A DNA stretch of 55,094 nt from a virus (lineage: Duplodnaviria; Caudoviricetes): the IMG/VR virus record IMGVR_UViG_3300020074_000024, positions 1 through 55,094 of that record; one strand, 5' to 3'. A program made the translations under genes and the position numbers. Of the stretch, positions 6,112-55,092 are shown piece by piece. The notes beneath the pieces are model-generated. The model did no database searches, was not told the DNA's origin, and worked only from the letters and a program-made list of their open reading frames with translations. Numbering within the stretch: the stretch's first letter is position 1; every line of letters starts with the position of its first letter.

Positions 6112-6127
6112 AGTACCTCCTGACTAT

Positions 6128-6156
6128 AGTGTAGCGTATATTGCCTAGTTTGTCAA
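6128..6156 (-). promoter_or_regulatory. sigma70-type promoter TTGACA-N17-TACACT
   Basis: agtgta 6128-6133, tgtcaa 6151-6156; spacer similar to the other promoter copies. Confidence 0.7.
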
Positions 6157-8651: not shown

Positions 8652-8670
8652 CTCACTTCCTCCTGACTAT

Positions 8671-8699
8671 AGTATAGCAGATATTGCCTATTTTGTCAA
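8671..8699 (-). promoter_or_regulatory. sigma70-type promoter TTGACA-N17-TATACT (extended -10), head of the early region
   Basis: agtata 8671-8676, tgtcaa 8694-8699. Confidence 0.82.
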
Positions 8700-8729
8700 G
8701 CGTTTTAGCGAAAATAGACGGCCAATTTT

Positions 8730-21300: not shown

Positions 21301-24300
21301 GGCAGAGACCTGATTCATCACCTCGACAACGCCGTCAAAGAACAAGCGGACGCTGCTCTGAACCGTAGCCACGTCAGTCGCCGCAGCATTCAGAACCCCA
21401 CTCATGGCAGAGATGGCGTCCTGGAGGGGCCGTAGCTTTGTCCCCAAGTCCTCCAAGAGCCGCGAGTGGACGTCCAGCCTGGTAAGTGAAGCAGATACGT
21501 TGCTGGAGTTCACGTCCAGGTAGCCAGTGATAGCCCCAATGAAGTCATCCAGCTTGCCGAAAAAGTCTTCCACGGCAAAGTGCCCGTCCTCAAGCTCGGC
21601 GCTCGCCGCCTGCAACAAACCGGCGCCAGCAGAGACCGCCCTACTGAGCAGGTCAAACCCCGCCGCCATGTCTAGCAATAAACTGGCGTGGCGGGCTATC
21701 CCAGCGATGACTGCCTGGACTTGTGACTGATATGTGGTCAGGAACGCCGTTATCCCTGTTACCAGCAAGGCAAGCCGAATGAAAAAGTTACTTGCGTCAA
21801 ACTGTGTTTCTTCGACCTCTTTGGCGCAAGCGTCGAAAAGCCTGCCCGCCAGGTCAAGAGCGTCCACCAATGGAGACAGAGACTCGGACATCTGAGCCAG
21901 TAACTCTCCGTGAACGGCAAGGCGAGCCGCTGCGTCAGCCAAAAGCCCCGCCCCCATGTCCAGAGTCGCAATAGCCGAGTTGAGCAGCGTCAGCAGGCGT
22001 AGCCCGAACAGGTCAAACGCCATGCTAATTTCAGGGACCTCCTTTGCCGCCAGCGCCATCAGGTCAGCAGCAGCAGAGAGGGCGTCCTTCAACGGGGATA
22101 GCGCCTCTGCCAGCTTCTTGAGCGCATCCTCGTGAACCGAGATGCCAGCAGTAACGTGGCCCAGCTCCGCGATGGATGTGTCAAGGAAGGCCAAGATGTT
22201 ATGAAGCGTTGCCAGCAGATTGCCTGAGAACTCATCCCAGTCCAGGCGCAACTTGCCAGCCCCCTCGCCAGCGAAGGAGACCAGGTCAGCCGCCAACCCC
22301 AGGAATTGCGGCAGAGGCCCCAACGCGCTGTACATCTCCTCCAGCTCCGCACGAAATACGGCCAGCCTGGCGGTGATTGTAGATAGCTCCCTCGACCCCT
22401 CCAGGTAAGTCGCTATGTCTGTGGTCATCAGAAGCAAGCGGTCGAGGGCTATGTCAATCTGCCCCCGCGAGTAGCTTGCCTGGTCAGCCAGCAACTTGGC
22501 AATGTCATCGCCGGCCCGCAAAACGGCGGACAATGCACCAAGCTCTTTTGCCCAGTCCTCAAAATAGACCGAGGCAAAGGAGATGCGCTGGGTAGTCGCG
22601 ATTACGTGAGCTGTGTTGCGAACGAACCACCAGAAAGCTTCGTTGGTGAGGTCAAGCAGTGAACTGAGGGCGTCAGACAGAGTGGTCTTTGCCGTTTCTG
22701 CCTCACTCGCGAGTATGCCCAGGGTATCCCTTGCGAGCGCCAGCAGAGCAACGACGGGGGAGAACGCAGCAATCCACCTCTCAAGTGTATCGGTAAAGTC
22801 AGCCTCGTACATAAAACACATGCGTAGCATCTGCGGCCAGTTAGCGGCAATCCAAGCGGCTCCTTCCTCGGTGATTCGCAGCAAAGCGCCGAGGAAGTTG
22901 GCGACGCTGGAGCGCGTGTCACTGGCCCGCTTGCTCAGCAATTCAAGTGTGTCCTGCGCCAGGCTGAGTAGCTTGGAGATGGGTTCGAGCGCGGTATTCC
23001 AGTCTTTCAGCAATTCAACCGTGTCCTTGTCGAAGGATTGAATCATCTCGGTCAGAGACGAACGGTTTGCGCGAAGCCACTCAAGGCTGCTGAGGGCTAT
23101 GTCTCTCAGGCGATTGAAAACGTCCCCGATGGCAACCCTGGCGCGCACAAGGCGAGTGCTAAGCCCCTCGGACATGCTGCGGGCGAGGTCAATCAGCGAC
23201 CCGATAGAACCCATGCCCTCGGCGAACTTTTCCAGGTTGACCCTCTGCCCCTTGAGGGCCTCAGTCACGTCGCCAAAACGCGCCGCGTTAACCTGGAGCC
23301 AATTCCGGGCCTCCACAGCATAGCGGAGTATCCCGTCCAGAGCTTGTGTAACCGAAAGGCGAGCAACCTCTGTGTCGGCGGCCAGTGTCTCACCGATGGA
23401 CTTGTTTACGCCAAGCAGGCCACTGATGGTCTGCATGACCCCGTTCCAGTCGTTCAAGATGGGCCCCATCTCCGTAGCCATCCAGTGAGTCCACTCACCA
23501 AGGCCCTGCTGGGCGGGGCTGGTCATCCACTGGCCCACCTGTTGCCCGATACGATACAGCTCATCCAACCATCTGCCAACAGTCGCCTCCGGCAGCGAGG
23601 GAAGCTCGGACGACAACGTCTCTAGAATATTCTGTATGGAGTTGAACAAGCTCTCCAGCGTTTGGGCAATGTCCAGAGTGACTTCTTCAGCCCTTCTCTC
23701 GGTCTGCCGTCCAACCTCAGACATGCCCTCCACAGAGATAGCCGCGATTTTGCCGTAGGCTCCTTGTATCATCGCCTCCTGGCGTGACCAGTCCACCTGC
23801 CCGACCTGCCCCGCCGCCATTGCCGCTGCCTCTGCCTCGGCCTTGTACGCCAGTATGATGCCCTCGATGGAAGATATCTGCGCTGAAGCGAACCCCGCCA
23901 CCCCGTCGGCTTTTGCGGAAGCAATGCGCAGAATAGCCAGGCTGGCATCGGCTTGCGCTGTGACCTCCGCGCCAAGAGCGTTTCGCAAGCCAGCCAGGAT
24001 GTTAGATGCTGTCTCCTGGCCAATCTCCTGCTCCATGACCGCTTCCATGACCCACAGAGCCATCTTCTGCCCAAACGCTTTGGTCGCCTCGTCCAGCTCG
24101 GCCTTGTATTTCGCCTGCTCTTGCATCAATGATAATTTGGCGTCTAACTCACGCAAGATTTGCTGCTTCTGGTATGAGGCGTCCAGAGAAGCGACCCGCT
24201 TCTCGTCGCCTGCCGCTAACGCCGCCTCGCGCTCGGCGTTATATTCCGCAAACGAGCGGATGGATGCCAGTTGCGCCGAGGATTGCTTGTCTGCCAGCGA

Positions 24301-36528: not shown

Positions 36529-36546
36529 TCTAATTCCAAAATTAGA
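36529..36546. promoter_or_regulatory. Palindromic site TCTAAT-N6-ATTAGA
   Basis: TCTAAT TCCAAA ATTAGA overlapping the GT stop, 4 nt from ATG 36524. Confidence 0.7.
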
Positions 36547-38764
36547 TTGTTCCAGCCGCCTCTTGGCGGTAGAACTCATAGACGGGTCGAAACTTGTCCC
36601 AAAGCTGAGCCTTAATCTGTTCCCGTCGCGAATCGGCCTGCTCCCTCATGCTCCCGTCTCGCTGCCTGTACCAGAACAACGGCTCAGCAACCTTGACCCC
36701 ATACCAGCCCCGTGTGCCCGCCATTATCCAAAAGGCGTAGTCCTCCCAACCAAGGGTAAAGTCCTCGGGGTATCCCCCAATCTCCTCCCACATGCAGCGG
36801 GGGTATAGGGATGTAGCAAACATCATGCCCCGCTGAAGCATGGCCTCAAAGCTGTACTCCGGCTGGACGTGAGTGGTTTTCGAACCATCGTCCCGGAAGG
36901 CGACAAAGTCGGTATAGACAATGTTTCGCCCGTTCTGGGCAGCCAGCGTCCTCTCCAGAAAAGTTGGGGCGATGGCATCGTCTGCGTCGAGAGGCAGAAT
37001 GTACGTCCCCCTGGCCCGGCTTACCCCAGCGTTACGCGCCGCCGGAAGGCCCTTGTTGCGCTGGCTGATGTAGCGCACCCGCGGCTCATCCTCGTATGCC
37101 CGCAATGCCTTGCGAGTATCCCCAGGCGAGCCGTCATTCACAACGATGCATTCCCAGTCCTGGAACGTCTGCCCGATAACGCTGTCCACCGCCTGCGCGA
37201 GGTATTGCTCATGAGCGTAGCATGGAATGATAATACTCACAGTGGGTTTGTACACTCTGGGGTGATACGCATTCACCACCGCCCGCAGTCGGGCAACCTG
37301 GCTTTGGCTCTCCGCGTTGCGGCCAGTGTCATTCATGCGGTAGCCCCACAAGTATTCGTCCACCCACTTGCCAGTGTACCCAGCCTCCGCGATGGACAAC
37401 CAGAACTCATAATCTTCCCAAGACGGGTTGATGTCCTTGTACCCGCCGGCCCTCTCCCACGCCTCCCTGCGAAACAGGGACGCGCAACCGACATAGTTGC
37501 CAGCCTGTAGCTTGCGGGCATTGTACTCCTGGGAGCGAACCCCATTGCTCGTACCGATAATTGCAAAGTTGCTGTAGGCAAAACCAACCCCAGGAGCCAT
37601 GTGAGGCAACATCTTCTCCAGGTAGTTAACGCTCAAAACATCGTCCCCGTCCAGGCACACAACGAACCGCCCCCTGGCCTTCTGAACGCCAAGGTTGCGA
37701 GCCTTGGCCGCGCTGCCAGTGTTCCTGCGAGTGCGAATGGCCTTAACCCGCCCCTTGGATATAATCCCCCAGGAGCCGTCAGTGCTCCTGTCGTCCACGA
37801 CAATTACCTCAGCGGGTACAGTTTGCCGCAGGGCAGACTCGATGGCGTCCCCGATGTACTGCTCCTTGTTGTAGCAGGTGATTACAATACTGGCCTCCGG
37901 CCCCTTATGAACAACGCGCCTGGAGTCCTCGTAACAGGATATGTACTGCCGGATGACCCTGTCCCACGTATAGTGCGCCGCCACTATCTCGCGGCCAGCC
38001 TCGCCGAGGCGACCCCTGTTGGCTATAGCCTGCCTCACCGCCTCAGGCAAATCCACCTGCCTGTCGCATAGCACGCCGGGCACGCCATGCTCGAACACCT
38101 CCTGCGTTCCGCCGTAAGCCATGCTAACCACAGAAACGGCCATAGACATGGCTTCCAAGACCTGAATGGAAAAACACTCCAGGGTGGTTGCCAGCAAACA
38201 AGCCGCCCCGCCAAGCCACGCCAGCGCGTCCTCGCGGCTCAACTTGCCAGTGACCCGCACGTTCGGTGGAATAGCCACCCCGTCCGGCACACTCACGAAA
38301 ACATAGGGGATGTCCGGGGTCTGCTCAGCCACCCACAAGGCTAGGCGCGCTCCCTCGTCCACCACGCCGCCTCCACACACTTTGCCAAAGAACACGTATC
38401 CCTGCGGCTCGACACGCGCAAATAAATCTGTGCCGTTAGGGATGATACGCACGTCCCTGCGCCTGTAGGAGCCAACGCCCCAGCGGCAAGGGCTGGTGAC
38501 TGTGGTGGCAGTCAAGAGGTTCCAGTAAATTGTGTTGTTGGCCTCCCTCTCCCAATCACTGCGAACGGGAGGGGGATATACGCCGTGACACGTGTACACA
38601 TCCACCTGGGGAGATGCGGCAATCGCATGACAGTGAACAATGTCCGCTACGTCAGCTTCCACAATCTCTATCCCGAAAGAAGGAAGCCTGGCGCGAAGCT
38701 CCTGCGTCACGCGGGCGACCCCGCCAAACCCAACCTCCTCAGGCAGAACAGCTACCCTCACCAT
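36542..38764 (-). CDS. Triple-domain glycosyltransferase (GT4 + GT2 + GT2)
   Basis: ECFSIQVLEAMS (GT4); ASIVITCYN..VDDRSTD..LDGDD and VSIIIPCY..VNDGSP..LDADD..EDY (two GT2); ATG 38764 with AGGAGG RBS. Confidence 0.92.
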   Translation of the reverse strand: MVRVAVLPEEVGFGGVARVTQELRARLPSFGIEIVEADVADIVHCHAIAASPQVDVYTCHGVYPPPVRSDWEREANNTIYWNLLTATTVTSPCRWGVGSYRRRDVRIIPNGTDLFARVEPQGYVFFGKVCGGGVVDEGARLALWVAEQTPDIPYVFVSVPDGVAIPPNVRVTGKLSREDALAWLGGAACLLATTLECFSIQVLEAMSMAVSVVSMAYGGTQEVFEHGVPGVLCDRQVDLPEAVRQAIANRGRLGEAGREIVAAHYTWDRVIRQYISCYEDSRRVVHKGPEASIVITCYNKEQYIGDAIESALRQTVPAEVIVVDDRSTDGSWGIISKGRVKAIRTRRNTGSAAKARNLGVQKARGRFVVCLDGDDVLSVNYLEKMLPHMAPGVGFAYSNFAIIGTSNGVRSQEYNARKLQAGNYVGCASLFRREAWERAGGYKDINPSWEDYEFWLSIAEAGYTGKWVDEYLWGYRMNDTGRNAESQSQVARLRAVVNAYHPRVYKPTVSIIIPCYAHEQYLAQAVDSVIGQTFQDWECIVVNDGSPGDTRKALRAYEDEPRVRYISQRNKGLPAARNAGVSRARGTYILPLDADDAIAPTFLERTLAAQNGRNIVYTDFVAFRDDGSKTTHVQPEYSFEAMLQRGMMFATSLYPRCMWEEIGGYPEDFTLGWEDYAFWIMAGTRGWYGVKVAEPLFWYRQRDGSMREQADSRREQIKAQLWDKFRPVYEFYRQEAAGTI

Positions 38765-38776
38765 ATCCTCCTGGAT

Positions 38777-38803
38777 AAGGGGGCGGGGTAGCCCCGCCCC
38801 CTT
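38777..38803 (-). terminator. Hairpin after the major capsid gene
   Basis: AAGGGGGCGGGG-cta-CCCCGCCCCCTT, 12-bp arms, weak U-tract. Confidence 0.55.
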
Positions 38804-38810
38804 GCATTCG

Positions 38811-40226
38811 TTATCGTGGCGGAGAGGTCTGAACTGGCGACCAATCCTCCCATCCACCGCACGGCCCGTACGTGTACGGGAGCTGTGCGTATGCAGCCGG
38901 ATTCGTGGGTGGCCTGCCTCCGAAGAAGTACGGGTCACCCGGCTTGGGCTGCATCGGCGGGATGTTGAATGGCGCACAAACGTCCGTGATTCTACCCTGC
39001 AACCAAGGCGTCCGGAGAACCATGCGCGCCTTGGCATAGACCGTCTCGTTGAAACACTCGTTCACATTCTTGCTGTGGGTCAGGAAGCGCCCACCGTCTG
39101 TCACCATCGCGCCCTGGACAAGCCTGTCCTGCGGAATGCCTGCCAGCGTACTGGCAAAGTCCTGGTGCTCCATATACAGGGCCCGACCGCCGCCAACACG
39201 CCTGGTCAGCACGAAGATGTCTGAGCAGAAGAACGGCGCTTCGGATGTCTGTGGTATCCAGTCATTCGTCAAGATACTCACCGGAATACCGTCCACCTCG
39301 AAGATACCCTGGCCGAACGTGCCGGCAGTAGCGATTCGCGCCCGTTCCCTCTGGGACTCTAGCGGGTTGACGTTCACCTCGTTGTACTGCTGCCCCTGGC
39401 ATGGCCCGCAGCCGCAGGCCACGAAGTCAATCAGGGCGTCTCGCATCAAGGACGTCATAACCAGCGCGATGTCGTCAGGAGCAACCCCGCCCAAGAAGCG
39501 GGCCCTTGTCCTGATGCGCCGCACGATGTCCCTGATGTAGTCACATATGCTGTTGTTCATGGCATTGGCGCCCCACTGCACGATAAGTGGCTCGGCGTCC
39601 TGGCAGCGCGCCCCTGTCCGGTAGTCAATCACCGGCGTGCTGATGAGGCGCTGAAGCCCGTCAAAGTGCAAGGCGCTTGTCTGCCGGTTGCCAATGACGA
39701 GCATCCTCTCGTATGCCTGGCGCAAAACGAAGCTGGCCAGGCTTATCTGCCACATGCGCTCGTCTGTGATTCGCTGGTTTGCGCTTGGCCCGCGTATCAC
39801 GTATCGCGGCTCAATGTCGCATCCCCGCAAGCCCAACTGAAGCAGGCTGAGGTCTGCGCCTGAGAAGGACATCTCGCCAAAACAGTAGAGTAGCTCGCAC
39901 TTGCCATGCTCTACCCTGGGCGAGTCCTCGCAGGGGCCCTCGCGTTCCCACACAGGGCTGTTCGCAGACGTCCCTTGCGGCCCAATCCAGCCCATCAGCT
40001 TGACCGGGTGGGGGTCAACATCGCTGCCCTCCGTGCCCAACCAGGTGCTCAGCATGTCGTCGGTGATAAGAGTAGATATCAACTCGTTGCCACCACAATA
40101 GCTGAACATCCCCTGGCCGTATATCCATGTCTGCGGCTGCAACAGGGCAGTGCCAGCCGCCACATTCACCTTCTCTCGCTCGAGGTAGCCCTTGATGGCC
40201 TCAAGCAGTCCAGTCTCAATGCTCAT
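38811..40226 (-). CDS. Major capsid protein
   Basis: Follows protease/scaffold; ATG 40226 (MSIETG); G.....HFDGL and DGIPV HK97-fold-like motifs; followed by a hairpin. Confidence 0.8.
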   Translation of the reverse strand: MSIETGLLEAIKGYLEREKVNVAAGTALLQPQTWIYGQGMFSYCGGNELISTLITDDMLSTWLGTEGSDVDPHPVKLMGWIGPQGTSANSPVWEREGPCEDSPRVEHGKCELLYCFGEMSFSGADLSLLQLGLRGCDIEPRYVIRGPSANQRITDERMWQISLASFVLRQAYERMLVIGNRQTSALHFDGLQRLISTPVIDYRTGARCQDAEPLIVQWGANAMNNSICDYIRDIVRRIRTRARFLGGVAPDDIALVMTSLMRDALIDFVACGCGPCQGQQYNEVNVNPLESQRERARIATAGTFGQGIFEVDGIPVSILTNDWIPQTSEAPFFCSDIFVLTRRVGGGRALYMEHQDFASTLAGIPQDRLVQGAMVTDGGRFLTHSKNVNECFNETVYAKARMVLRTPWLQGRITDVCAPFNIPPMQPKPGDPYFFGGRPPTNPAAYAQLPYTYGPCGGWEDWSPVQTSPPR

Positions 40227-42425: not shown

Positions 42426-42683
42426 ATTGGGTAAAGTCCACCGAATGCTCATTGCTTTCCCCCCTTCACGATTCTCACGACCGGCGCCCCTTGCTTGCGG
42501 AACCCCTCGATTATGTTTCTCACTGGGCTCCTCTCTACGCAACAGAATGCCGTCGCGCACCGGCACAATACACAAGACGTCGCCGGGCTTCACGTACTCC
42601 GTGAGGTAGTCACCGCGGATGCGAATCATGACAGTGTTCTTGGCGTCACCGGCAGCGTAGGTGGTTACTGTAGTCTTTCTCAT
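42411..42683 (-). CDS. AbrB/SymE-like swapped-hairpin protein
   Basis: MIRIRGDYL...KPGDVL.IVP..DGILLRR; ATG 42683 by ATGA overlap. Confidence 0.55.
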   Translation of the reverse strand: MRKTTVTTYAAGDAKNTVMIRIRGDYLTEYVKPGDVLCIVPVRDGILLRREEPSEKHNRGVPQARGAGRENREGGKAMSIRWTLPNLTSK

Positions 42684-43150
42684 TTGACCTCCTTCCACTC
42701 GCAGCCAGTGTATCGCCAGCGGGTGTCCGGGTGAGCCTTGACCATCTTCGCCAAAGTCCCGGAGTCGAGCTTCCAAGACAAGCTCGGAGATAGCCACGCA
42801 ATGACGCCCCACTTGAACGCCTGGTATCTCTCCAGGGCGAACTGCTTGCCGTACTCCTTGCACAGGATTGCCAGGGCCAATTGCGCGGGCCCACTGCCCC
42901 CGTATCCCCAATTGAACTCAGTCGAGTGGTTGACCACATTGCGGAACAGGGGCAGGGGCTCGCCGTTGACCGTCACCTCTTTGTCGAAGGCCCCGTGTAC
43001 GATACCTTCGTACACGTTGCCAAATGTGTATGCCCCATCAGCGAAGCCGGTGGCGTCGCCCACATCAGGCATTTCCGGCTCAAACTCCCAAGGCTCCGGC
43101 ACAACCGAGTGGTCAGCGTCCGGGTCATGAAGATAAGAGATACCGTCCAT
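42680..43150 (-). CDS. DUF6166-like protein
   Basis: NHSTEFNWGYGGSGPAQLALAIL...YQAFK..VIA signature. Confidence 0.75.
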   Translation of the reverse strand: MDGISYLHDPDADHSVVPEPWEFEPEMPDVGDATGFADGAYTFGNVYEGIVHGAFDKEVTVNGEPLPLFRNVVNHSTEFNWGYGGSGPAQLALAILCKEYGKQFALERYQAFKWGVIAWLSPSLSWKLDSGTLAKMVKAHPDTRWRYTGCEWKEVK

Positions 43151-43178
43151 TTTACCCCTCCTTCTCTAATCTAACTAT

Positions 43179-43207
43179 AGTATAGCATATATTGCCTAGT
43201 TTGTCAA
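43179..43207 (-). promoter_or_regulatory. sigma70-type promoter TTGACA-N17-TATACT (extended -10)
   Basis: agtata 43179-43184, tgtcaa 43202-43207; near-identical to the early promoters. Confidence 0.82.
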
Positions 43208-43237
43208 GCGTTTTGACAAAGATTGGCCGACGAGTTT

Positions 43238-43255
43238 TCTAATATTAACATTAGA
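43238..43255. promoter_or_regulatory. Palindromic site TCTAAT-N6-ATTAGA
   Basis: TTTTCTAAT ATTAAC ATTAGAAAA, 30 bp upstream of the -35. Confidence 0.7.
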
Positions 43256-43280
43256 AAAAAAGAGGGGGTTCTACCCCCTC
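43255..43280 (-). terminator. Intrinsic terminator
   Basis: GAGGGGG-tagaa-CCCCCTC followed by T7. Confidence 0.8.
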
Positions 43281-43540
43281 ATGCCGAGCCGCTTCATCAG
43301 CGTCTCCAGGTCGATCAGCACCCCTTCGTGCTTCTTCCTGTTGTACAGCTCCAAATGCCAGTGGCCGTCAATCAGGACAGCCCTGGCAAGTTTCGCCTCC
43401 CCACTACTGATAAAGCCGTTCCCTTGCACGCTCCAGTCGCCAGTGGTGCGCCGAGGGCGCTTGCAGACAGGGCAACAGTGGACGTCACCGTCCAGAGCGT
43501 AACTGATGACCAGCCCGCAGGCACTACACTGCCACGTCAT
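43271..43540 (-). CDS. small zinc-ribbon protein
   Basis: CSAC...CCPVC. Confidence 0.6.
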   Translation of the reverse strand: MTWQCSACGLVISYALDGDVHCCPVCKRPRRTTGDWSVQGNGFISSGEAKLARAVLIDGHWHLELYNRKKHEGVLIDLETLMKRLGMRG

Positions 43541-43745
43541 CGTCCGGCTTGCTCAGGAAAGAGAGCAGTGCCTTCACGGAGACAAGCCCGCCAAATAACC
43601 CCATGAGCATCATCGCCATGAGGCCAAGGCAGCCGGGCGGCTTGTCAACTTCGGCGCGCCTGTAGTAGACCAGGGCCTTGAACGAGCCGTACACGAAATA
43701 CAATACCGGGAACACCAACAACCCTGCCAAAAACTGAATCATCAA
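43524..43745 (-). CDS. small two-TM membrane protein
   Basis: Two hydrophobic segments; overlapping start/stop. Confidence 0.6.
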   Translation of the reverse strand: MMIQFLAGLLVFPVLYFVYGSFKALVYYRRAEVDKPPGCLGLMAMMLMGLFGGLVSVKALLSFLSKPDDDVAV

Positions 43746-43963
43746 TCCTCCATAATCTCGGCTCTGAGGTACGCCCCGTCATACCTCTGCGGCGCACCTT
43801 CGATGGCTTTGCGTACAGCGGCCTCGTCCTTGCGGTCTATGTCGCGCAGCATGTTATCCAGGATTCGCCTGGCAATTACCGTATCTGCCTTAAGGGGCGG
43901 GAATGTGACAAAGCCAAGTGTCACCGGCCCGTCCGCGCTTGTTGTTTCAAAACGAATCCGCAT
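43742..43963 (-). CDS. 73-aa protein, candidate immunity/antitoxin of the portal-fused kinase
   Basis: Overlaps the portal-kinase stop, GGAGGG RBS; function inferred from position only. Confidence 0.6.
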   Translation of the reverse strand: MRIRFETTSADGPVTLGFVTFPPLKADTVIARRILDNMLRDIDRKDEAAVRKAIEGAPQRYDGAYLRAEIMED

Positions 43964-46259
43964 AGCTAGACCCTCCTTCAGTGTACAGATTGAACCCTCC
44001 TACCTGAATCATATTTTGAAAATTGTCCCACATAGCATCAACATCATGCTTTTTAGGGCTTTTTGACACAAGCGTTAACTTGCCCACGGATTGCTTGAAT
44101 TGCTTCTCAGTTATCCCTTTCCATCGCGCGAGCTTTTCGGGCGTAAATTGGGCGAACTCGCGTCGGTTGCTGGCGGGATAACGCACCCATAGCGCCACAA
44201 CATTCTTCCCGCTCACTATCTTGCGCCCGTTGTCGGCGTGCCCGTGGTCTATGGCCCACAGCTTGCCCTTACTGTCAAATATGTAATTGCCGCCATGCCT
44301 GTCGCCGTTCCCCATTACAATGTCCAGCGCAAGCATATCCTCAGCCCTGCTCCTGTTGTCCTTCAAGGACTTCTCCAGGTTGTCAACGTAGTCGGCAACT
44401 TTGGCGTTCTCAACAAAATACTGCACCGTCCCTTTGTTCCCCTGAAACGTCAGCTCCTTTGTTTCCGGGACAACGGGGTCATCGGGGTTAAGCATCTTCG
44501 CTACCCTGTATGCGGCAATTTCATTGTTTGCATTGTGTCCATATGCATTGTCCGCGTCCTTGTAAACCCCAGAGCCGTCACCGGCCAGCCCAACAACATA
44601 CGAGTAGTTGATGCCCCCACCGAGCTTCTTCGACGTAGCGACCTCAGTGGCCCTGCCAAAGGCGGTCCCTCTAGGCGCAGCCACCGCCGCTGCGTGACCG
44701 GCAGGATTGCGATGAATCCCGCCACCGGGCCGGCTTCCTCCCCTGTGTCCAGGCCTGCCTTCATGTCCCCAGTTACCGCTGCCAGGGCCACCCTTCTCGC
44801 CAAGCAATCTCTCGGCCTTGCGGTCGAGCAAGCTACCAAAGGCCTCATTCCATGAGCGAATCGAGGCAACAATTTGCCTTTTCCGCCACTCAGGCAATTC
44901 CTCATAGTCCGCTGCCTTTGTCTCCTCTGGAGCTTCGCTAGACACGTCGGTCACGGTCTCCTCAGTCTCCTGTGGGACAATCACCGCCGCGTCCAGTTCC
45001 TCCTCAGTCAAACAGTTCTCCCTGGCCAGGATGCGCAGCGCAACCTCTTTGGGCAAAAGTCCCGTCTCCATACCCTGCGGTGGCGACCAGAGCTTGGTCA
45101 CATAGTCGCCCCAAGCCCCTGCCAGTTGGGCTCTGTGCAAATCCCCGGCGTCGTCCTGCTCATCAAAGACAAACTCTGCCCCTTCGGGGAGCACTTCGTA
45201 GTTGAGCGCCCTCTCCAGGATACGCAGAATCTCACCAACGCCCTTCCCCTGCCCTTTGAGGTGTTGAACCTCACCGACAGCCTTGGTGGAGCCGGTGTGT
45301 GTAAACAGCCAAAACTCCCCGGCGTCCACGCCAGCGCAAGCGGACAGTGTCTTCACATACGTCTCAACTACATCCTTGCGGGTGAAGCTAGCAGGCGGCT
45401 CGCTGAAGGGAACCCACTTCACATCCACGCCCGGCCCCATCTCGTTGTTAGAAGCCAGCCACAGAAGTTTCTTGAATGTCAAGTCTCGGCTGCCCCTGTT
45501 CGCCTTCCACAAGTCAAGGGCGTCCTTGACCTGCTGCTGGTTCATGCCCGTCACCGCCGCAATGCCCTCAGGCGGCATATCGTCCAGGGCGTCTTCTTCG
45601 TACTTGTGTAAAGCAAGAAGCAGCGAGATGGTGCGGATAGCCCTGCTCACCAAAGACACGCCCGTCCAGTGAGTGGCCTCTACATCGGAGGGCATAGACG
45701 TTCTGTGAACCACGTCCCTGCTCCGCAGGGGAACAACCCTTCCAGCCGATGTGTAGTACACCAAGTCGCCGTCAGTGCCAGGAGGAAACCCCGACTCGCC
45801 CCTGAAGCGACAGTTAGCGATGTCCAGATAGGCAAGCCCTGTTACAGGGCCGTTCTTGCTGGTGCGGCCCTTCTCAAACAACGCCCCCCTGTCCTGAGTC
45901 AAAAAGCAGCGCACCCACCGCTTCAGTTCTGTGTCCCAGCCGGCGCCCTCTCCAGCAGACAGCAACATCTCCGTGGCCTGCTGAGCCAGGCGCGGCTTGC
46001 CAGTGACCTTCCATGCCGTGGTCGCCACCCTGCTGACGATGGTGTAAATCACCCCTGCCAGCAAAGGCTCCTCCAGCCAAACGTCCCTGAGCCGCTTGTC
46101 TCTCTCCACCGTCCCTGCTGGCGGCAATTGCCCGACCTTGCCCGCCAACATGGACATCATCATGAATGCCTGCCCGACATCCCCATCAAAGCGGCTCTGG
46201 ACGAACTCAGGCCGTTTGGCTTTCGTTAGTTGCCTCTGTATCCATTCCTGATAGCCCAT
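43947..46259 (-). CDS. Portal protein with C-terminal HipA/PI3K-like kinase domain
   Basis: Portal position after TerL with about 450-aa portal-like body; C-terminal LGGGIN, GVYK, NEIAAY, DRHGGNY, AIDHG kinase motifs. Confidence 0.85.
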   Translation of the reverse strand: MGYQEWIQRQLTKAKRPEFVQSRFDGDVGQAFMMMSMLAGKVGQLPPAGTVERDKRLRDVWLEEPLLAGVIYTIVSRVATTAWKVTGKPRLAQQATEMLLSAGEGAGWDTELKRWVRCFLTQDRGALFEKGRTSKNGPVTGLAYLDIANCRFRGESGFPPGTDGDLVYYTSAGRVVPLRSRDVVHRTSMPSDVEATHWTGVSLVSRAIRTISLLLALHKYEEDALDDMPPEGIAAVTGMNQQQVKDALDLWKANRGSRDLTFKKLLWLASNNEMGPGVDVKWVPFSEPPASFTRKDVVETYVKTLSACAGVDAGEFWLFTHTGSTKAVGEVQHLKGQGKGVGEILRILERALNYEVLPEGAEFVFDEQDDAGDLHRAQLAGAWGDYVTKLWSPPQGMETGLLPKEVALRILARENCLTEEELDAAVIVPQETEETVTDVSSEAPEETKAADYEELPEWRKRQIVASIRSWNEAFGSLLDRKAERLLGEKGGPGSGNWGHEGRPGHRGGSRPGGGIHRNPAGHAAAVAAPRGTAFGRATEVATSKKLGGGINYSYVVGLAGDGSGVYKDADNAYGHNANNEIAAYRVAKMLNPDDPVVPETKELTFQGNKGTVQYFVENAKVADYVDNLEKSLKDNRSRAEDMLALDIVMGNGDRHGGNYIFDSKGKLWAIDHGHADNGRKIVSGKNVVALWVRYPASNRREFAQFTPEKLARWKGITEKQFKQSVGKLTLVSKSPKKHDVDAMWDNFQNMIQVGGFNLYTEGGSSYADSF

Positions 46260-46461
46260 GCTTCCCCCAACGTTCGCTGTATCTCGCTTCCCTATCCTCG
46301 TCTATGTCCAGGCCGTGTAAAAGACAGATTTGCTCAGCCGCCCAGTCCTCTACCCGCCAGCCGAAGCGCTCGAATGAAAATAACAGACGATACCACGTCA
46401 ACACAACCCAAGCCGCAACCCCGCTGAGTAAGAATCTAATTTTGCTATTAGATTTACTCAC
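46207..46461 (-). CDS. small membrane-anchored hypothetical protein
   Basis: GTGA overlap with the TerL stop; N-terminal hydrophobic helix. Confidence 0.55.
   Translation of the reverse strand: MSKSNSKIRFLLSGVAAWVVLTWYRLLFSFERFGWRVEDWAAEQICLLHGLDIDEDREARYSERWGKHGLSGMDTEATNESQTA
46435..46452. promoter_or_regulatory. Palindromic site TCTAAT-N6-ATTAGA
   Basis: AATCTAAT TTTGCT ATTAGATT just downstream of the TerL stop. Confidence 0.7.
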
Positions 46462-47747
46462 GCCATGAATCCCCCACCGCCGCCATCGTCGTCCATCGCG
46501 TAGCGGAGGGCGTCAACCCGGTGGAATGTCTCCTTGTCCTGTATCTTTTCCGTCGGCTTGCCGTCAGTCCCCAAGGTACGCTGGTATGATTGTACGTCAT
46601 CTATCAGCCCAGGACAACTACGGAAGACGAACAGCCTATCTTGCCCCCACAGCGCGTTGAGCCTATCTATCCCCGATTCTACTGATGACACAACAGGCGG
46701 GTCAAGCGGGACCCCACACGCTCTCCAGTCCATCCGGGACTGTGTTTCGGATTTACTGCCGCCCTTCCAGACAACGACTCTCTCAGCCCGTGCGTGTTGC
46801 AGTGCCCTGGCCGAATGCTCAGCCGTTGTCAGCCCGCCGGAAAGTGTCTCGCGATACACGTAGAATGCCCTGCGCTCCCTGTCCTCAGCCACCCATACCA
46901 AGGCAGTGTTCGCACCGCCAAAGTCCACCCCTACTCGACGTGGCCACTCAGGTGGGACGTCGAAGGGCTCGACTGCGTGCCGCGCTTCCTGAAACTTGCT
47001 GAACACTAGCCACTCAGGGCGCTCGAATTGCCCGTCGTAGAACATCCTGAACTTGGAGTGGCTCACAGTGCTTCTGGCTCTCTCGTACTCAGCGGCGGGA
47101 AAGGCCGGATTGACTATACTTGGCGCTTGACAGACAAAGTAATTGGGGTCTCCACTCCTGGCCCTGTCCAAGACTTCGTGCTTCAGCCAATTCACCGCAT
47201 AAGGAGTCGTGCCCCCGAAAAACCTCCCCTGGGAGAGGCTAAGGCGTCGCAAGATAGCCTGCCAGGAGTCCAGCCTGAAAGACGGCTGGCCTATCTCGTC
47301 ACCAATCACCGCCTGAACGGTAGCTGACTCTAGCCCGCCCGGACTTTCGGCAGACCGCAGGATGACGCGGCCCCACATGGGGTCACTCGCCCGTTCAGCC
47401 CAAAATCTCCCAGTGTTCGGGTCGCGCAGTTCCAGCACTTTGTCCCCAGACCAATACTTCCCCATCTTCATGCCGTACACAAACACTTCCAGCATCGCCG
47501 GTAGCATCTTGAGCTTGAACAGGTCGTAGGTCGCCGTGACCGCCAGGTAGTCCCCCTTGCCCCTGCCCTTGTAGCCGTCAAGCCCGTATATCTCCCTGTA
47601 GAGAATCCAGGGGAGAAAAGTAGTCTTCCCGCCCTGCGTCCCGATAATCAGGAATGAAAAACGGGCCTGCGAATCCCAAAGCGACTCCTGGGCCTTGTGC
47701 AACCTGAGGCGAACCCCGCCGTCCTCGAATCCCCATAACGGCTTCAC
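46458..47747 (-). CDS. terL: Terminase large subunit
   Basis: Walker A GTQGGKTT, Walker B VIGDE, coupling motif GTTP, RNase H-like GVDFGG and HRVDALRY. Confidence 0.93.
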   Translation of the reverse strand: MKPLWGFEDGGVRLRLHKAQESLWDSQARFSFLIIGTQGGKTTFLPWILYREIYGLDGYKGRGKGDYLAVTATYDLFKLKMLPAMLEVFVYGMKMGKYWSGDKVLELRDPNTGRFWAERASDPMWGRVILRSAESPGGLESATVQAVIGDEIGQPSFRLDSWQAILRRLSLSQGRFFGGTTPYAVNWLKHEVLDRARSGDPNYFVCQAPSIVNPAFPAAEYERARSTVSHSKFRMFYDGQFERPEWLVFSKFQEARHAVEPFDVPPEWPRRVGVDFGGANTALVWVAEDRERRAFYVYRETLSGGLTTAEHSARALQHARAERVVVWKGGSKSETQSRMDWRACGVPLDPPVVSSVESGIDRLNALWGQDRLFVFRSCPGLIDDVQSYQRTLGTDGKPTEKIQDKETFHRVDALRYAMDDDGGGGGFMA

Positions 47748-48240: not shown

Positions 48241-49599
48241 TCAATCATCCAGCGAGTGGAAAGTATAGAATACGTCGCCATCCACAATGCGCGTAGGCCG
48301 CAACGCGCCTTGAAAATACTGGTAAGGCGAGCGCTCCCTCTGGGGGTCGTTCCATAGGTCGCGCAGAAAGTCGGCCCAAGTGTAATATTTGCGCTTATGC
48401 CGCTTGAGCGGCCCGGCGGGGACAGGAACCATGTTGTCCCAGGGCACAGAGTAGGCCCATGGCGGCGTTATGTCCTGCGGGCCAATCTCCGTGCCAGTGG
48501 CTTTGGCTCGCAGCAATTGATTCGTGGCGCTCTCGCGCTGCCAATTGCCGAAGACTGGGTCGTCAGGCATGATTCCGCAACAGCAGCCGGTATCGCCGAG
48601 TTCCTTCCAGACCGGGTCACTAATGCCCACGACCATGCCGTGCCTGTGCGCAACGTCGCGCACGTCATGCATGACAGCCCGCGTCCAGGCCGCAGCGGGC
48701 CGGACACATGCCCTTTGGCCGAACTTGGCGTAAGTACCCAGGTGGTCAAACCCCGTTACGTCACTCAAGAGCTTCCACCGGGCGCGCACATCGTTTGTGG
48801 GCGCACCCGGGGTGAAGGCAACCTCGTAGGAAACGGCCCTTGCGCCCGCCTCTGCCGCCGCTGCGATCAACTCGCGGTATGCATACGGGTTCGCCGGATG
48901 GCCCCAAGTCACGCCTGCCAGCATGGGCCGCAAGCGCAGTGACGTCTTCACGCCGATGCCGGACAGGGCCTTCATGGTCGCTAGTCGCTCCGAGGGCACC
49001 GGGGCCTTGCGGTCAATCTTACGCACTAGGGAATCGTCCGGGCTGACGATACTGAACGCAACCCAGAACAAGTGCGGGGCGCGTTCTAGCACCCGCAGAT
49101 AGTCAGGCTGGGCCAAGACGACGCCCTTTGTGGAGATTCTCGTCGGCTGGTTGTATTTGATTGCTAGTTCTAGATACCGCAATAGCCAGCCCTGCTGCTG
49201 CTCGATGTAATCGCATGGGTCGTTGAGTGCGCCTAACTGCACCGGACCAGGGTAGCCGTTACGCCTGTCGTCATACTTGAGAGCCTTGCGCATGACGTCA
49301 AACCGCTTGCCCTCGCCAGCGAAGAGGTTCTCTATAGAGCGCAAGCTCGTCTGCCCGACGCCCCATCCAGTACTCTGCCGGTGCGACAACAGGTTGTTGG
49401 AAAAACAGTACAGGCAAGCAAAAGAGCAGAACGAATGGCTGTCTATGCTTACCGGCAACGCACAGTCAAAACCGTCGCTAGTAAACCGGATGCCGTCGTA
49501 GGCCCGCAATCGTTGCCGAACCGGCGCGCAGTATGAGCCATCGCAACGCCGACAAGTCGCGCAAACGTTCATTGCCTCATGGCGCGGATTCTGTAGCAT
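48241..49599 (-). CDS. Radical SAM enzyme (SPL-like)
   Basis: CSFACLYC (CxxxCxxC), DP, ISTK, ERL, LRLRP; additional Cys clusters (CCCG). Confidence 0.85.
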   Translation of the reverse strand: MLQNPRHEAMNVCATCRRCDGSYCAPVRQRLRAYDGIRFTSDGFDCALPVSIDSHSFCSFACLYCFSNNLLSHRQSTGWGVGQTSLRSIENLFAGEGKRFDVMRKALKYDDRRNGYPGPVQLGALNDPCDYIEQQQGWLLRYLELAIKYNQPTRISTKGVVLAQPDYLRVLERAPHLFWVAFSIVSPDDSLVRKIDRKAPVPSERLATMKALSGIGVKTSLRLRPMLAGVTWGHPANPYAYRELIAAAAEAGARAVSYEVAFTPGAPTNDVRARWKLLSDVTGFDHLGTYAKFGQRACVRPAAAWTRAVMHDVRDVAHRHGMVVGISDPVWKELGDTGCCCGIMPDDPVFGNWQRESATNQLLRAKATGTEIGPQDITPPWAYSVPWDNMVPVPAGPLKRHKRKYYTWADFLRDLWNDPQRERSPYQYFQGALRPTRIVDGDVFYTFHSLDD

Positions 49600-52687: not shown

Positions 52688-52755
52688 CCTCGTCCTCCCA
52701 GGACGCCGCAAACGCTCCGTTCAAGTGCCTCAAGCGATTCCTTGCGCTCTGTCAT
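52684..52755 (-). CDS. 23-aa coupling mini-ORF
   Basis: MTERKESLEALERSVCGVLGGRG; ATGA overlaps at both ends. Confidence 0.4.
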   Translation of the reverse strand: MTERKESLEALERSVCGVLGGRG

Positions 52756-53075
52756 TGAAAGCACCTTCCTGAAAACTCAAGTGCCTGCGGGCCCTGCTCC
52801 CCCTGCAAACCCGGTCCCTCCGGCCCCTCGCCATAGAGCATCTGGCCGCAGTAGGGGCAGTAGCTGACCAGATAGTTGTACTCTGCATCCCACAGCATCC
52901 AGATACCACCATGCTCCACAACGGGCAGCAACCCGCCGCTCAGCGCTCCCTGGCCCCGCGTAACCTCCCTCAGCCAACGGCGAGCAGAGGCGCACGAATG
53001 CACGCGAAACCCCTTCTCGCTCAGCCTCTGCTCCTCAGCCGCATCCTCCGACTCCAAGACATCCAGATCAATCAT
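52752..53075 (-). CDS. hypothetical protein with HxC...YCPYCG
   Basis: Coupled ORF; short G-x-x collagen-like tail. Confidence 0.65.
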   Translation of the reverse strand: MIDLDVLESEDAAEEQRLSEKGFRVHSCASARRWLREVTRGQGALSGGLLPVVEHGGIWMLWDAEYNYLVSYCPYCGQMLYGEGPEGPGLQGEQGPQALEFSGRCFQ

Positions 53076-53278
53076 GCCCCGCCCTTGGACGCCTCACCGA
53101 CCGCCTCGAATTGTAAGCCGTTATCGCCGTCTATCGGGGATGAGTGCCTGTTCCGTCCGGCGCGAATATCGTCTGGTATTCCGTCAGGAAAGGCGAAACA
53201 CCGAGGCCATGCCGCTAGGTAGATACACCCACGGCAGACGGGTTCAGGGATGTCGCCTGTGTCTGGGAAGGCGGTCAT
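53072..53278 (-). CDS. small Cys/His protein (CxxC...C.AFP.GIP..I..G...H..P..GD.G..F), candidate immunity protein
   Basis: ATGA overlap with the effector gene; motif recognised by eye from small genes that follow phage head-associated toxin domains. Confidence 0.65.
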   Translation of the reverse strand: MTAFPDTGDIPEPVCRGCIYLAAWPRCFAFPDGIPDDIRAGRNRHSSPIDGDNGLQFEAVGEASKGGA

Positions 53279-55092
53279 TTCTTTATCCCGTCAATGGCAA
53301 TCCAGTCGCCACCCTCGTTCAACTCCTGGATAGAGATGCCCCCACAGGGAGTCCAGTTGTCTCCGTCCGCTGAGACAAACAAGCCGCCGTCCTCCAGTTT
53401 GATATACAACGCCTGCCTCTGCTCCTCGCCGTAAACGCGCGCCCAGTACAACGTCTCCATAGCCTTCACCTTCCATGCCAGTGTTTCAATTTGAGGGGGC
53501 GGGGGCACTGTTCTCTCCACGTTTCTTTGCATCTGCACAAGGTATTTCCCCCACCGGGAGTCGCCTGGCGGCAATGCTCGTTGCCTTTGGTATGTTTTGT
53601 GGTTAAGAGTCTCCTTGGCGTGGTATGATTGCCTTGTGTGGAATTGCACCTCGAAGATGGCCCCCGTCTTCTTGTCCTGCCAATTTGTGTTAAGTCCCCA
53701 GTAGCCATAATTCTTTGTGCCCCAAAAGTTGCGGAGTTTCTTGTCATAGACCTCAAGTCCCGCAGCTCGCAGTTGCTTGAATATCTCCTTCGTTCCTGAC
53801 ACATAGTTTTCGGGCGATAGCCGTACTGTGTAGCGCAGAGCGTCGTGTACCCTATGGTAAGCTATGGCCTCCGGCACTCCATGCGACACCTCCCATAGGG
53901 CCTTACGCTCGATGCCTTCGGCAGTTTTGAAGCGGTGGTCGAGCCCGACAAGCTCCCCTCCCCCCGCCGCCGTTGCCCCTGATAGCGCGGCAGTTATTTC
54001 AGGCTCCGCTTCCGTGACGCGGGACAATAACGCCTCGGCGTTCATTGGCAGTCTGTGGTGTCCCCCTCCGGGCCTGCTCCCGCCCACATGCGGCGGGTTG
54101 CCTTCGTGCGCCCAGTGACCGGAGCCAGCCCCTCCCTTAATGACCTCAGATTGTACGGTCTGCATCAATAATGAAAAAAGTTCCTCAGACTCGCGGGACT
54201 GGAAGCCCTTTTTCCCTGCCACTGTCAACGCCCATGTTTCCGCAAACCACTCATGGAAGCCATCGCGGGCCCGTGCCGTTGCGCCGTGCTGTCTCGCAAA
54301 TGCGTCCCAAGTCGTCTTTTGGATAGTCCCACCTGCCGCCAAAAGCCCCGCCACCTGGGAGAACGTCTCCCGATGTTTTGGGTCGCGTAGATTTTTCAGG
54401 GCCCTATACCCAACCGCGTGGCCGAATTCATGCCTGGCGCACCCTTCGTAGGGGTCAGAAAATGCGTAGCTGCTGTGTTCGCGCCACAGTTCGTCCCGGC
54501 CATCCTCCATCAACTTGCCAACCCTGGCCAGGACGGCGCCCTCCATGCGGTCAGCATCGCCCATTCTCTGCTGGTGCTCTTCCGTGGTTATCAGCCCTTT
54601 CTGGAGTGCGTCGCCGGCCTTTGCACGCACCCTGTCTGCCACGGCTCCGCCATCGTTCATGAGTCTGTTGGCCTCGTCATCCCAAGATTCGTGCGGCCCA
54701 ATGATAATAGTACCGTCAGCTTTGTAGTGCCCTTGCCCTAACACGTCCCCCTGGTCAAAAATGAGCGTGCCATTCCAGTCCGACTCATGGTCCATGTTCA
54801 TCTCCTGAACCATGCCTTGCATCCGGCGGCGGACGTCCTCAGGTATCTCCCTGGGCCCGTCGCGAACCTCGGTATGATAGCGGAGCGCGGAGTCAGCAGG
54901 AGTGCCCGGCGCGCCCCCGCCCCCCGTCCACTGCCCACCTTCCGGCGCCCCTGCCGGCGCACGCGGTTGGTTCGGGTCGAACTTAGCGACGGCATCCTGC
55001 GCTTCCTTCACCGCCTGCTCTGCGCCTATCATGTCTACCCACGCCCTGCCCGCTTCCAGTGATTTCTGTGCCGCATATACCGAACCGGGCAT
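53275..55092 (-). CDS. Multi-domain (polyvalent) effector: zincin metallopeptidase + RelA/SpoT-like nucleotidyltransferase (may extend past the right edge)
   Basis: KFDPNQPR..G...GGQWT; HEFGH...EWFAE; RFK...RK, DALRYT, Y.GLN, FEVQFHT..S...KE. Confidence 0.8.
   Translation of the reverse strand: MPGSVYAAQKSLEAGRAWVDMIGAEQAVKEAQDAVAKFDPNQPRAPAGAPEGGQWTGGGGAPGTPADSALRYHTEVRDGPREIPEDVRRRMQGMVQEMNMDHESDWNGTLIFDQGDVLGQGHYKADGTIIIGPHESWDDEANRLMNDGGAVADRVRAKAGDALQKGLITTEEHQQRMGDADRMEGAVLARVGKLMEDGRDELWREHSSYAFSDPYEGCARHEFGHAVGYRALKNLRDPKHRETFSQVAGLLAAGGTIQKTTWDAFARQHGATARARDGFHEWFAETWALTVAGKKGFQSRESEELFSLLMQTVQSEVIKGGAGSGHWAHEGNPPHVGGSRPGGGHHRLPMNAEALLSRVTEAEPEITAALSGATAAGGGELVGLDHRFKTAEGIERKALWEVSHGVPEAIAYHRVHDALRYTVRLSPENYVSGTKEIFKQLRAAGLEVYDKKLRNFWGTKNYGYWGLNTNWQDKKTGAIFEVQFHTRQSYHAKETLNHKTYQRQRALPPGDSRWGKYLVQMQRNVERTVPPPPQIETLAWKVKAMETLYWARVYGEEQRQALYIKLEDGGLFVSADGDNWTPCGGISIQELNEGGDWIAIDGIKK

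Follow-up and report, generated by a model that had tools for sequence, protein, structure and literature searches.

The stretch of DNA analysed here, hereafter the window, is the whole of the linear IMG/VR virus record IMGVR_UViG_3300020074_000024 (Duplodnaviria; Caudoviricetes; 55,094 bases, estimated completeness 74%), and all of its major genes lie on the minus strand. One of these genes, an open reading frame (ORF) at 43947..46259 (-), joins a portal protein to a predicted PI4KII-like atypical kinase in a single unbroken frame of 770 amino acids (aa), which runs from an ATG start to a stop codon at 43947-43949 and is overlapped at its end by a gene for a 73-aa protein. The kinase, the Gly-rich leader that precedes it and the small gene form a 1050-bp unit which one lake population holds in both a present and an absent state. 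Our reading, held with slightly better than even confidence, is that this is a portal with a 1.05-kb cargo cassette, that the kinase would be packaged and delivered to the next host, and that the 73-aa protein would hold it inactive in the producing cell. A preliminary description, made from the letters alone, had already proposed the portal-kinase fusion, and the uninterrupted frame bears it out. The parts of the fusion and its partner gene are as follows.

44988..46259, minus strand: portal body, residues 1-424, assigned from a weak Pfam match, homologues, gene order and Foldseek.
44796..44987, minus strand: acidic tail and C-terminal helix of the portal, residues 425-488, the last stretch common with the kinase-less allele.
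44625..44795, minus strand: Gly-rich leader, residues 489-545, with the motif GNWGHEGRPGHRGGS (residues 495-509) at 44733-44777.
43950..44624, minus strand: domain of the PI3/PI4-kinase superfamily, residues 546-770, assigned from Pfam, AlphaFold2 (AF2), Foldseek and VIA-align.
43971..43979, minus strand: Shine-Dalgarno element GAAGGAGGG of the 73-aa gene, read from the sequence, 7 nt before the ATG.
43742..43963, minus strand: gene of the 73-aa partner protein (P0002), ATG start, a candidate kinase inhibitor or immunity protein by its ribosome-binding site, overlap, natural allele and co-fold.
43744..44793, no strand assigned: cassette of leader, kinase and partner gene, 1050 bp, defined by a contig of run X6 (record 10) and the protein P0003.

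The C-terminal domain scores 35.8 bits (E 1.1e-8) with Pfam PI3_PI4_kinase (PF00454), whose gathering cut-off is 27.1. The five kinase motifs that the preliminary description had named are all there, namely LGGGIN at 546-551, GVYK at 564-567, NEIAAY at 579-584, DRHGGN at 653-658 and IDHG at 670-673, and with them the ATP-binding K567, the catalytic D653-R654-H655..N658 and D671-H-G. In an alignment of 65 sequences, in which the protein residue equals the domain residue + 519, E580, R654, N658 and D671 are invariant while G549, K567 and D653 are conserved at 90% or more. A search of 1.84 billion representative sequences with residues 520-770 finds 874 relatives at E<=1e-3, of which 115 reach E<=1e-10; the best are 39-43% identical. 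The structure prediction that had been proposed as a check gives a kinase fold (predicted local distance difference test, pLDDT, 83.4; predicted template modelling score, pTM, 0.83) with PI4KII as its nearest neighbour: ranks 1-4 in Foldseek are PI4K II entries, beta and alpha (E 2.2e-6), and a VIA search, independent of Foldseek, aligns 217 residues with PI4KIIalpha at Z 16.1 (root-mean-square deviation 3.8, 21% identity). By the predicted structure, residues 546-770 are thus a PI4KII-like atypical kinase. It is worth pointing out that the enzymes PI4KIIalpha and PI4KIIbeta (PDB 4pla, 4hnd, 4wtv and 8a5x), which are the best structural match and belong to the same Pfam family, differ from the phage domain in that the latter is a minimal unit of ~225 aa, working in a host that may have no phosphatidylinositol.

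The earlier label of the domain, a HipA/PI3K-like kinase, has to be split. Its PI3/PI4 half agrees with the Pfam family and the PI4KII match. Its HipA half finds no close counterpart: none of the HipA Pfam families (HipA_C, HipA_2, Couple_hipA) matches the 770-aa protein (P0001) or the 73-aa protein at E<=1, and in the VIA alignments the runners-up are Fam20 (Z 13.1), actin-fragmin kinase (12.8) and CtkA (12.6), followed by HipT (10.1) and HipA (10.0), values clearly under the 16.1 of PI4KII and well over noise. "HipA-like" therefore holds at superfamily distance only. The substrate class is not settled by the fold, because protein kinases are found among the near matches.

The portal part is harder to recognise by sequence. 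Pfam Phage_portal (PF04860) reaches 24.7 bits over residues 112-257 (E 1.6e-5), under its cut-off of 39.1, which by sequence leaves the protein outside that family, and a PHROG search with residues 1-488 gave no match. The six portal homologues recovered are 463-530 aa long, five of them 42-45% identical, and the one in locus L003 stands in the same order, after a terminase. In the window the order runs from a small-terminase-like ORF to the large terminase and on to the portal-kinase ORF, the large terminase being the upstream neighbour of the fusion:

46458..47747, minus strand: large terminase (Pfam Terminase_6C E 1.5e-6; phrog_2 E 5.9e-24).

From 7 sequences, AF2 produced a model of low confidence for residues 1-488 (pLDDT 60.6, pTM 0.54). 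When it was used as a Foldseek query, the entries listed among the first 50 ranks were all phage portal or neck proteins, with E from 2.1e-8 to 1.5e-4 and template modelling (TM) scores of ~0.3. Taken together, we accept residues 1-488 as a portal despite the Pfam score. The acidic linker reported earlier is real, with 11 D+E against 5 K+R in the 46 residues 425-470, and the model places a helix at 457-487. Relatives of this portal are scarce in the collections searched, which may lack records very close to the window: the whole 770-aa protein had no tblastn match at E<=1e-3 in 50,697 phage records, IMG/VR scans with the 770-aa protein and with the portal alignment returned no relatives, and of two metagenome scans the one with P0003 returned no match and the one with the portal alignment recovered the loci L003 and L004.

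The record comes from a metagenome, and the fusion could in principle have arisen from chimeric assembly, or from a sequencing error by which two genes were run together. We regard this as extremely improbable. The junction at 44700-44800 is bridged by contigs of three other lake-water runs: record 7 of X5 (44522-46800, 0 differences), record 13 of X6 (44293-44838) and records 19 and 20 of X7, all of them Logan contigs of runs not flagged as the source of the window. In run X5 two contigs do leave a 35-nt gap at 44487-44521, a circumstance that could be taken to favour an artefact; the gap, however, falls within the kinase rather than at the junction and is covered by record 13 of X6. Portal-kinase fusions, moreover, recur in unrelated portals, as described below.

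The same runs revealed the absent state of the cassette. Record 10 of X6 (1296 nt, depth 6.33) follows the window over 42534-43743, continues with 41 other letters and resumes at 44794, and cassette-bearing contigs are present in that run as well. The 497-aa protein P0003, from another contig, is identical to the portal over residues 1-488 and then ends after nine other residues. It is from these two, the protein and the joint in the contig, that the kinase-less allele is known. The cassette starts with the first codon of the leader, and at its other end it stops one base short of the ATG with which the following gene begins, a hydrophobic ORF that is likewise 73 aa long. The missing stretch spans exactly the leader, the kinase and P0002, and the three have therefore been gained or lost as one 1050-bp unit. 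The C-termini of other portal homologues, whose comparison had also been suggested, vary: P0003 has no kinase, the five more distant homologues P0004-P0008 have no C-terminal extension, and P0032 carries a long multi-domain one. Since the five distant homologues are also without an extension, gain of the cassette in this lineage would be a simpler reading than loss.

Fusion of this kinase to a portal is not confined to the window. Among the 150 best matches of the kinase, 52 homologues of 401-2000 aa were examined as a long set (four of more than 3000 aa were excluded), and 44 of the 52 match PF00454; HipA_2 is found besides in seven and HipA_C in two. Three carry Pfam Phage_portal and seven carry Phage_Mu_F. 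P0032, a protein of 1639 aa, belongs to the window's own portal family (E 3.6e-98) and has the kinase as its last domain, so that by domain composition the portal-kinase fusion recurs in at least 4 of the 52. Six distinct kinase genes outside the window could be viewed in their genomic context. IMG/VR scans supplied L005, L006, L007, L009 (a portal without kinase) and L010, and a genome scan supplied L008; scans with P0010 and P0085 as queries gave no matches. A profile search of 301 genomes of the order to which L008 belongs returned one strong match, the L008 genome itself, and eight weak ones of 26-34 bits.

Since 2012-2017, comparative genomics has predicted that the portal and MuF proteins of phages can carry effector domains. 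The preliminary description had placed such toxin extensions mainly on MuF proteins, and this understates the case, as Iyer et al. 2017 (PMC5512222) already describe portals fused to PBECR, 2H and InPase domains. In the passages covered, the same paper finds kinase and RelA/SpoT domains in phage polyvalent proteins, proposes that zincin-like peptidases cut these proteins into units, and interprets them as packaged and injected. The likeness to our locus is plain: a conflict enzyme, encoded in the packaging module, is joined to a domain that anchors it in the head, and here the enzyme is C-terminal to that domain and the C-terminal domain varies among close relatives. There are differences as well. 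Those passages of PMC5512222 contain no portal-kinase fusion, cognate small gene, Gly-rich leader or cassette polymorphism, although the alignment and architecture files of the paper may include the kinase family or architectures that join it to a portal, and the kinase clade they describe is without the whole C-terminal subdomain.

A second family of known systems is the MuF polymorphic toxins of temperate phages. As described by Jamet et al. 2017 (PMC5576092), their toxic C-terminus varies and is borne by a head protein whose gene neighbours that of the portal, with immunity genes to be expected downstream of it. The seven long kinase homologues with Phage_Mu_F connect the kinase family to them, while the anchor in the window is the portal itself; in the main text of PMC5576092, as far as it was covered, the word "kinase" has 0 occurrences. 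The earlier statement that no MuF gene is recognisable in the record agrees with the search for PF04233, whose best E of 0.29 is under the cut-off. This comparison suggests another explanation of the locus, that it encodes a polymorphic toxin-immunity pair of the MuF kind with which lysogens compete, the 73-aa protein protecting the lysogen and its kin. A variable enzymatic C-terminus followed by a small downstream gene is indeed the layout of the MuF toxins in the parts of PMC5576092 covered, and the cassette is polymorphic among near-identical phages. We nevertheless find this explanation very unlikely, as the 74% complete record has neither a match to tyrosine integrase PF00589 at E<=1 nor a MuF domain, and bears no sign of lysogeny.

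The 73-aa protein is the second element of the cassette that had been singled out from the start, as a small gene with its own ribosome-binding site overlapping the stop of the fusion. Both features are as claimed: GAAGGAGGG lies 7 nt before the ATG, and the ORF overlaps the last 17 nt of the 770-aa ORF, the stop included. The protein ends in the motif YDGAYLRA, encoded at 43760-43783. When P0002 was co-folded with the kinase domain, the ipSAE score was 0.69 (0.69, 0.67 and 0.72 in the separate runs) against 0.43 for the best of three controls; the partner had a pLDDT of at least 85, and at least 72% of the contacts were common to the runs. The predicted interface involves domain residues 25-36 (the Gly loop), 96-106 (the hinge), 136-141 (DRHGGN) and 151-152 (IDHG) on the kinase side and residues 60-67, RYDGAYLR, on the side of P0002. 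The model thus supports a placement of P0002 in the active-site cleft of the kinase by way of its YDGAYLRA tail. The link between the small gene and the kinase that had been suspected earlier gains from both lines, their joint loss in a natural allele and the predicted binding to the cleft.

The nearest precedent with a solved structure for such inhibition is HipS. In the passages covered, Baerentsen et al. 2023 (PMC10627512) state that it neutralises the kinase HipT with a conserved Trp that enters the active site. As in HipBST, the locus pairs a kinase of related fold with a small protein, and the co-fold puts the aromatic tail of P0002 into the cleft. Unlike HipBST and HipBA, it has no HipA Pfam match, a fold nearer to PI4KII, no HipB-type regulator, and the partner downstream rather than upstream.

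Small ORFs also follow kinase homologues elsewhere, and the YDGAYLRA tail of P0002 can be likened to their ends. In L005 a MuF-kinase gene is directly followed by an ORF of ~80 aa. In L006 (2552-7170) a portal (PF04860) is followed by a first kinase (444 aa), an 84-aa ORF, a second kinase (376 aa, PF00454 E 1.6e-8) and a paralogous 81-aa ORF, that is, by two kinase-partner pairs in tandem; L007 has the same genes. The three small ORFs of L005 and L006 are mutually homologous (blastp 1e-7 to 1e-21 within a four-sequence set), and a homologue search with the L006 small ORF returned itself and one 70%-identical protein, which brings the family of small partner ORFs to four sequences. The pattern Y.[GS].Y[ILVFM][RN]A occurs three times in 258,340 six-frame residues from nine sources, in P0002 and in the two small ORFs of L006. 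A looser version of it adds only gp17 of the halovirus HCTV-6.

The HCTV-6 locus deserves a closer look. Its gp16, named a "phosphatidylinositol kinase", is a member of this kinase family as judged by profile (73 bits; tblastn E 2e-3), and GenBank annotations place homologues in HSTV-2, HRTV-2, HRTV-11, HRTV-7 and HHTV-1. It is a free-standing protein of 490 aa in an archaeal myovirus and is not fused to a portal. The gene lies between head-completion and tail-completion genes and is followed by two small ORFs (gp16-gp18 together span L013 5422-7330), the first of which overlaps it, has 76 aa (gp17) and ends in WDGSFYRV. Literature searches on the function of the haloviral "phosphatidylinositol kinase" and on PI3_PI4_kinase/PF00454 with phage portals found no functional study among the matches listed.

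Could the 73-aa ORF be unrelated to the kinase, a hitch-hiker within the same indel, and its co-fold a false pass? P0002 has no homologue, no Pfam or PHROG family and no usable feature match in Atlas; a comparison by hhalign with the small-ORF family gives 11.5% probability; mismatched pairs do occasionally reach the co-fold mark (2 of 110), and one of the controls came to 0.43. Against these stand borders that coincide with the first leader codon and with the base ahead of the next gene's ATG, which puts the P0002 ORF within the unit, a strong ribosome-binding site with a start that overlaps the kinase stop, and a tail motif which is common to the L006 partner ORFs, and loosely to HCTV-6 gp17, and which is the very stretch that sits in the cleft in the predicted complex. 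On this balance we consider the hitch-hiker quite unlikely. The structural row that Atlas offers for P0002, a HipA N-terminal domain with TM of 0.58 and 0.35, is the one link between P0002 and HipS; it is under the bar of the tool and is kept as a lead only.

The leader that opens the cassette has a counterpart elsewhere in the record. As the mention of a shared leader in the preliminary description implied, residues 472-548 resemble part of another ORF of the record (41% identity, E 1.5e-12), and a regular expression for the Gly-rich motif, run over all six frames of the window, finds exactly two sites, 44736-44792 and 54079-54135. Recent recombination between the two copies was considered and dropped; their DNA is alike at the motif level only, with a mean column identity of 71% and no long identical run. 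Of the 150 kinase homologues, 142 have the catalytic loop DR[HN]xxN, and in 24 of these a motif of the leader type lies 90-230 residues before the loop. Two other short motifs serve six more homologues, and 21 of the 30 are short proteins with the motif near the N-terminus. The leader also recurs between the domains of giant polyvalent homologues, up to seven times in P0081. Its place before the catalytic loop and its recurrence between the domains of the giants led us to conclude that the motif travels with the effector domain. Searches of the literature with the leader-motif strings as substrings found no paper. Two more conserved short linkers, of the types [FY][DN]PxQPRxPxG..GGQW and GRF[IV]TKDG..IFIGG, part domains in P0032 (L010 4001-8920) and other homologues, and the first of them is also seen near the N-terminus of the second leader-bearing protein of the window, P0009. 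This protein and the ORF behind it are laid out as follows.

53275..55092, minus strand: P0009, second leader-bearing polyvalent protein, with linker, zincin-like region, leader and alarmone synthetase.
53072..53278, minus strand: 68-aa ORF that overlaps the P0009 stop, a layout like that of the 73-aa gene.

P0009 begins with the linker FDPNQPRAPAG..GGQW, continues with the region HEFGH...EWFAE and the leader GSGHWAHEGNPPHVGGS (54079-54135), and ends in a small-alarmone-synthetase domain. It matches PDB 8vx3 ("SaSAS") at E 1.1e-21 and phrog_7625 ("head morphogenesis") at E 2.2e-16. By the HExxH...E pattern alone, HEFGH...EWFAE is a candidate zincin-like metallopeptidase region; the zincin pattern is one that Iyer et al. 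2017 (PMC5512222) give for the metallopeptidases of polyvalent proteins. The frame of P0009 reaches the edge of the window, where it may be truncated. The 68-aa ORF has no Pfam family at E<=10; this ORF (53072-53278) and an overlapping one of 107 aa (52752-53075) come after P0009 and might be its neutralisers.

How could such a cassette work? We propose that the portal gained a 1.05-kb C-terminal cassette in which the leader and the PI4KII-like kinase are followed by the 73-aa gene, coupled to them in translation. As the C-termini of portals point into the capsid, the kinase would be carried inside the head. There it would be enclosed with the DNA, in up to 12 copies if every portal subunit retains its kinase. 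At infection it could exit by way of the portal channel, perhaps as a free domain where the leader has been cut, or it might stay tethered; once in the next host it would act on a host target by phosphorylation, in the service of takeover or counter-defence. Before that, in the cell that produces the phage, the 73-aa protein would lie across the ATP and catalytic cleft with its YDGAYLRA tail and keep the kinase inactive, and presumably it would be left behind at packaging. The leader would be a module boundary and may be a processing site or a capsid-targeting tag, in which case the zincin-like region of P0009 is a candidate protease for cutting it and freeing the kinase from the portal. The analysis itself establishes the fusion, the kinase fold, the conserved catalytic residues, the polymorphism of the cassette and the recurrent architecture; a model predicts the binding of the 73-aa protein; and packaging, copy number, cleavage, delivery, substrate, inhibition and toxicity are what we infer from them.

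Several points weigh against this explanation. The runs used for the junction and the alleles are all lake-water metagenomes of one year, maybe of one campaign, and they were available as contigs rather than raw reads. The closer kinase homologues in L008 and L010 precede ORFs of 268 and 291 aa instead of a small partner, and of these two followers the L010 ORF alone bears a faint likeness to P0002, confined to its N-terminus (E 0.04 within a set of ten sequences). A homologue search with P0002 returned itself only; hhalign aligned it with the small-ORF family over 16 columns at the low probability given above, and a hidden Markov model of that family misses it (E 0.072 in a five-sequence set). 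The tail pattern had been widened at one position after P0002 was seen, which makes it supportive rather than a clean test. Of 80 solved complexes, 58 came up to the co-fold mark and, as said, very few of the mismatched pairs did; these counts hold only roughly here, since our own 65-row kinase alignment was supplied; and a solved HipT-HipS complex of distantly related fold (7ab3) exists, so the score may be part memory. No prohead protease PF14550 was matched in the 74% complete record. Finally, twelve domains of 31 kDa on the portal crown might hinder packaging.

It is also conceivable that the kinase acts only in the producing cell or in head assembly, where it would phosphorylate late targets, and that the 73-aa protein is a regulator, a substrate or a chaperone. 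The gene is, after all, part of a late structural transcription unit, as a terminator-like hairpin ends the run of terminase, portal-kinase, 73-aa gene, membrane ORF and Zn-ribbon ORF:

43262..43280, minus strand: terminator-like hairpin, GAGGGGGTAGAACCCCCTC followed by a T run.

The tail of P0002, rich in Tyr and predicted to lie in the catalytic cleft, would be compatible with a substrate as well, and HCTV-6 gp16 has its place between head- and tail-completion genes. Other observations speak the other way: portals, MuF proteins and giant proteins with several leaders all have the same kinase domain, such proteins are seen as packaged and injected by Iyer et al. 2017 (PMC5512222, in the passages covered), and the existence of a close relative without the cassette means that assembly does not need it. 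We judge a role confined to the producing cell to be unlikely.

Delivery of the kinase to the next host, the reading preferred here, could be extended a good deal further. In the boldest form, the sequence G-[NH]-[WFYH]-x-H-x-G-R-P-G-x-x-G-G would be a general head-cargo tag and the cut site of a P0009-type metallopeptidase; swappable cassettes (kinase, alarmone synthetase and others) would each come with a pseudosubstrate-like inhibitor of ~75 aa that is stripped at packaging; a dozen PI4KII-like kinases would be injected; and the module would be common to bacterial phages and haloarchaeal tailed viruses. This extension is doubtful, and we offer it as a speculation.

The kind of system is already known. 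Within the literature searched, what is new is the portal-PI4KII-like architecture, the paired small ORF with its contact motif, the leader as a border of the cassette and the present/absent polymorphism; no tested portal-anchored enzyme was found in that literature. The locus makes a compact, testable case, an atypical kinase with an intact active site next to a candidate inhibitor with a defined contact motif, and it offers near-isogenic natural alleles with and without the cassette in one lake population. The relatives of the kinase and of the small ORF in the structural modules of cultured haloarchaeal viruses provide an experimental entry, with both virion proteomics and genetics feasible. 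Should the leader prove a tag for packaging or processing, the loading of diverse enzymes into phage heads would have an explanation, and the motif could serve a systematic search for such cargo.

Some other features of the window may be mentioned. Downstream of the cassette, 43271-43540 (-) is an 89-aa ORF with paired CxxC, seen by eye, whose Pfam zinc-ribbon matches are far under the cut-offs; an ORF with Cys pairs that follows the portal in L003 (4624-4911) is similar to it by eye. On the same side of the cassette, a DUF6166 protein (E 2e-19) is encoded at 42680-43150 (-). Directly upstream of the small-terminase-like gene lies a 452-aa radical SAM protein at 48241-49599 (-) (PF04055 E 7.2e-8). 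In the structural region an 831-aa protein at 36542-39037 (-) has one GT1 and two GT2 glycosyltransferase domains (Glycos_transf_2 E 9.7e-63), and a large ORF located 3' of capsid-like genes in L003 (7866-9455) resembles it by eye. The giant ORF at 15319-25971 (-), of 3550 aa, has no Pfam family, PDB sequence match or leader motif. No tRNA genes were found in the window.

A last observation concerns an extended sigma-70-type promoter element of 34 nt, TTGACA + 17 nt + TATACT with an upstream TG. Four copies of it with at most two mismatches, where 0 are expected, are found on the minus strand at 43175-43208, 8667-8700, 6124-6157 and 2416-2449. The copy at 43175 comes after the hairpin at 43262-43280, and the contigs which match the window solely over ~43174-43217 bear the element as well.

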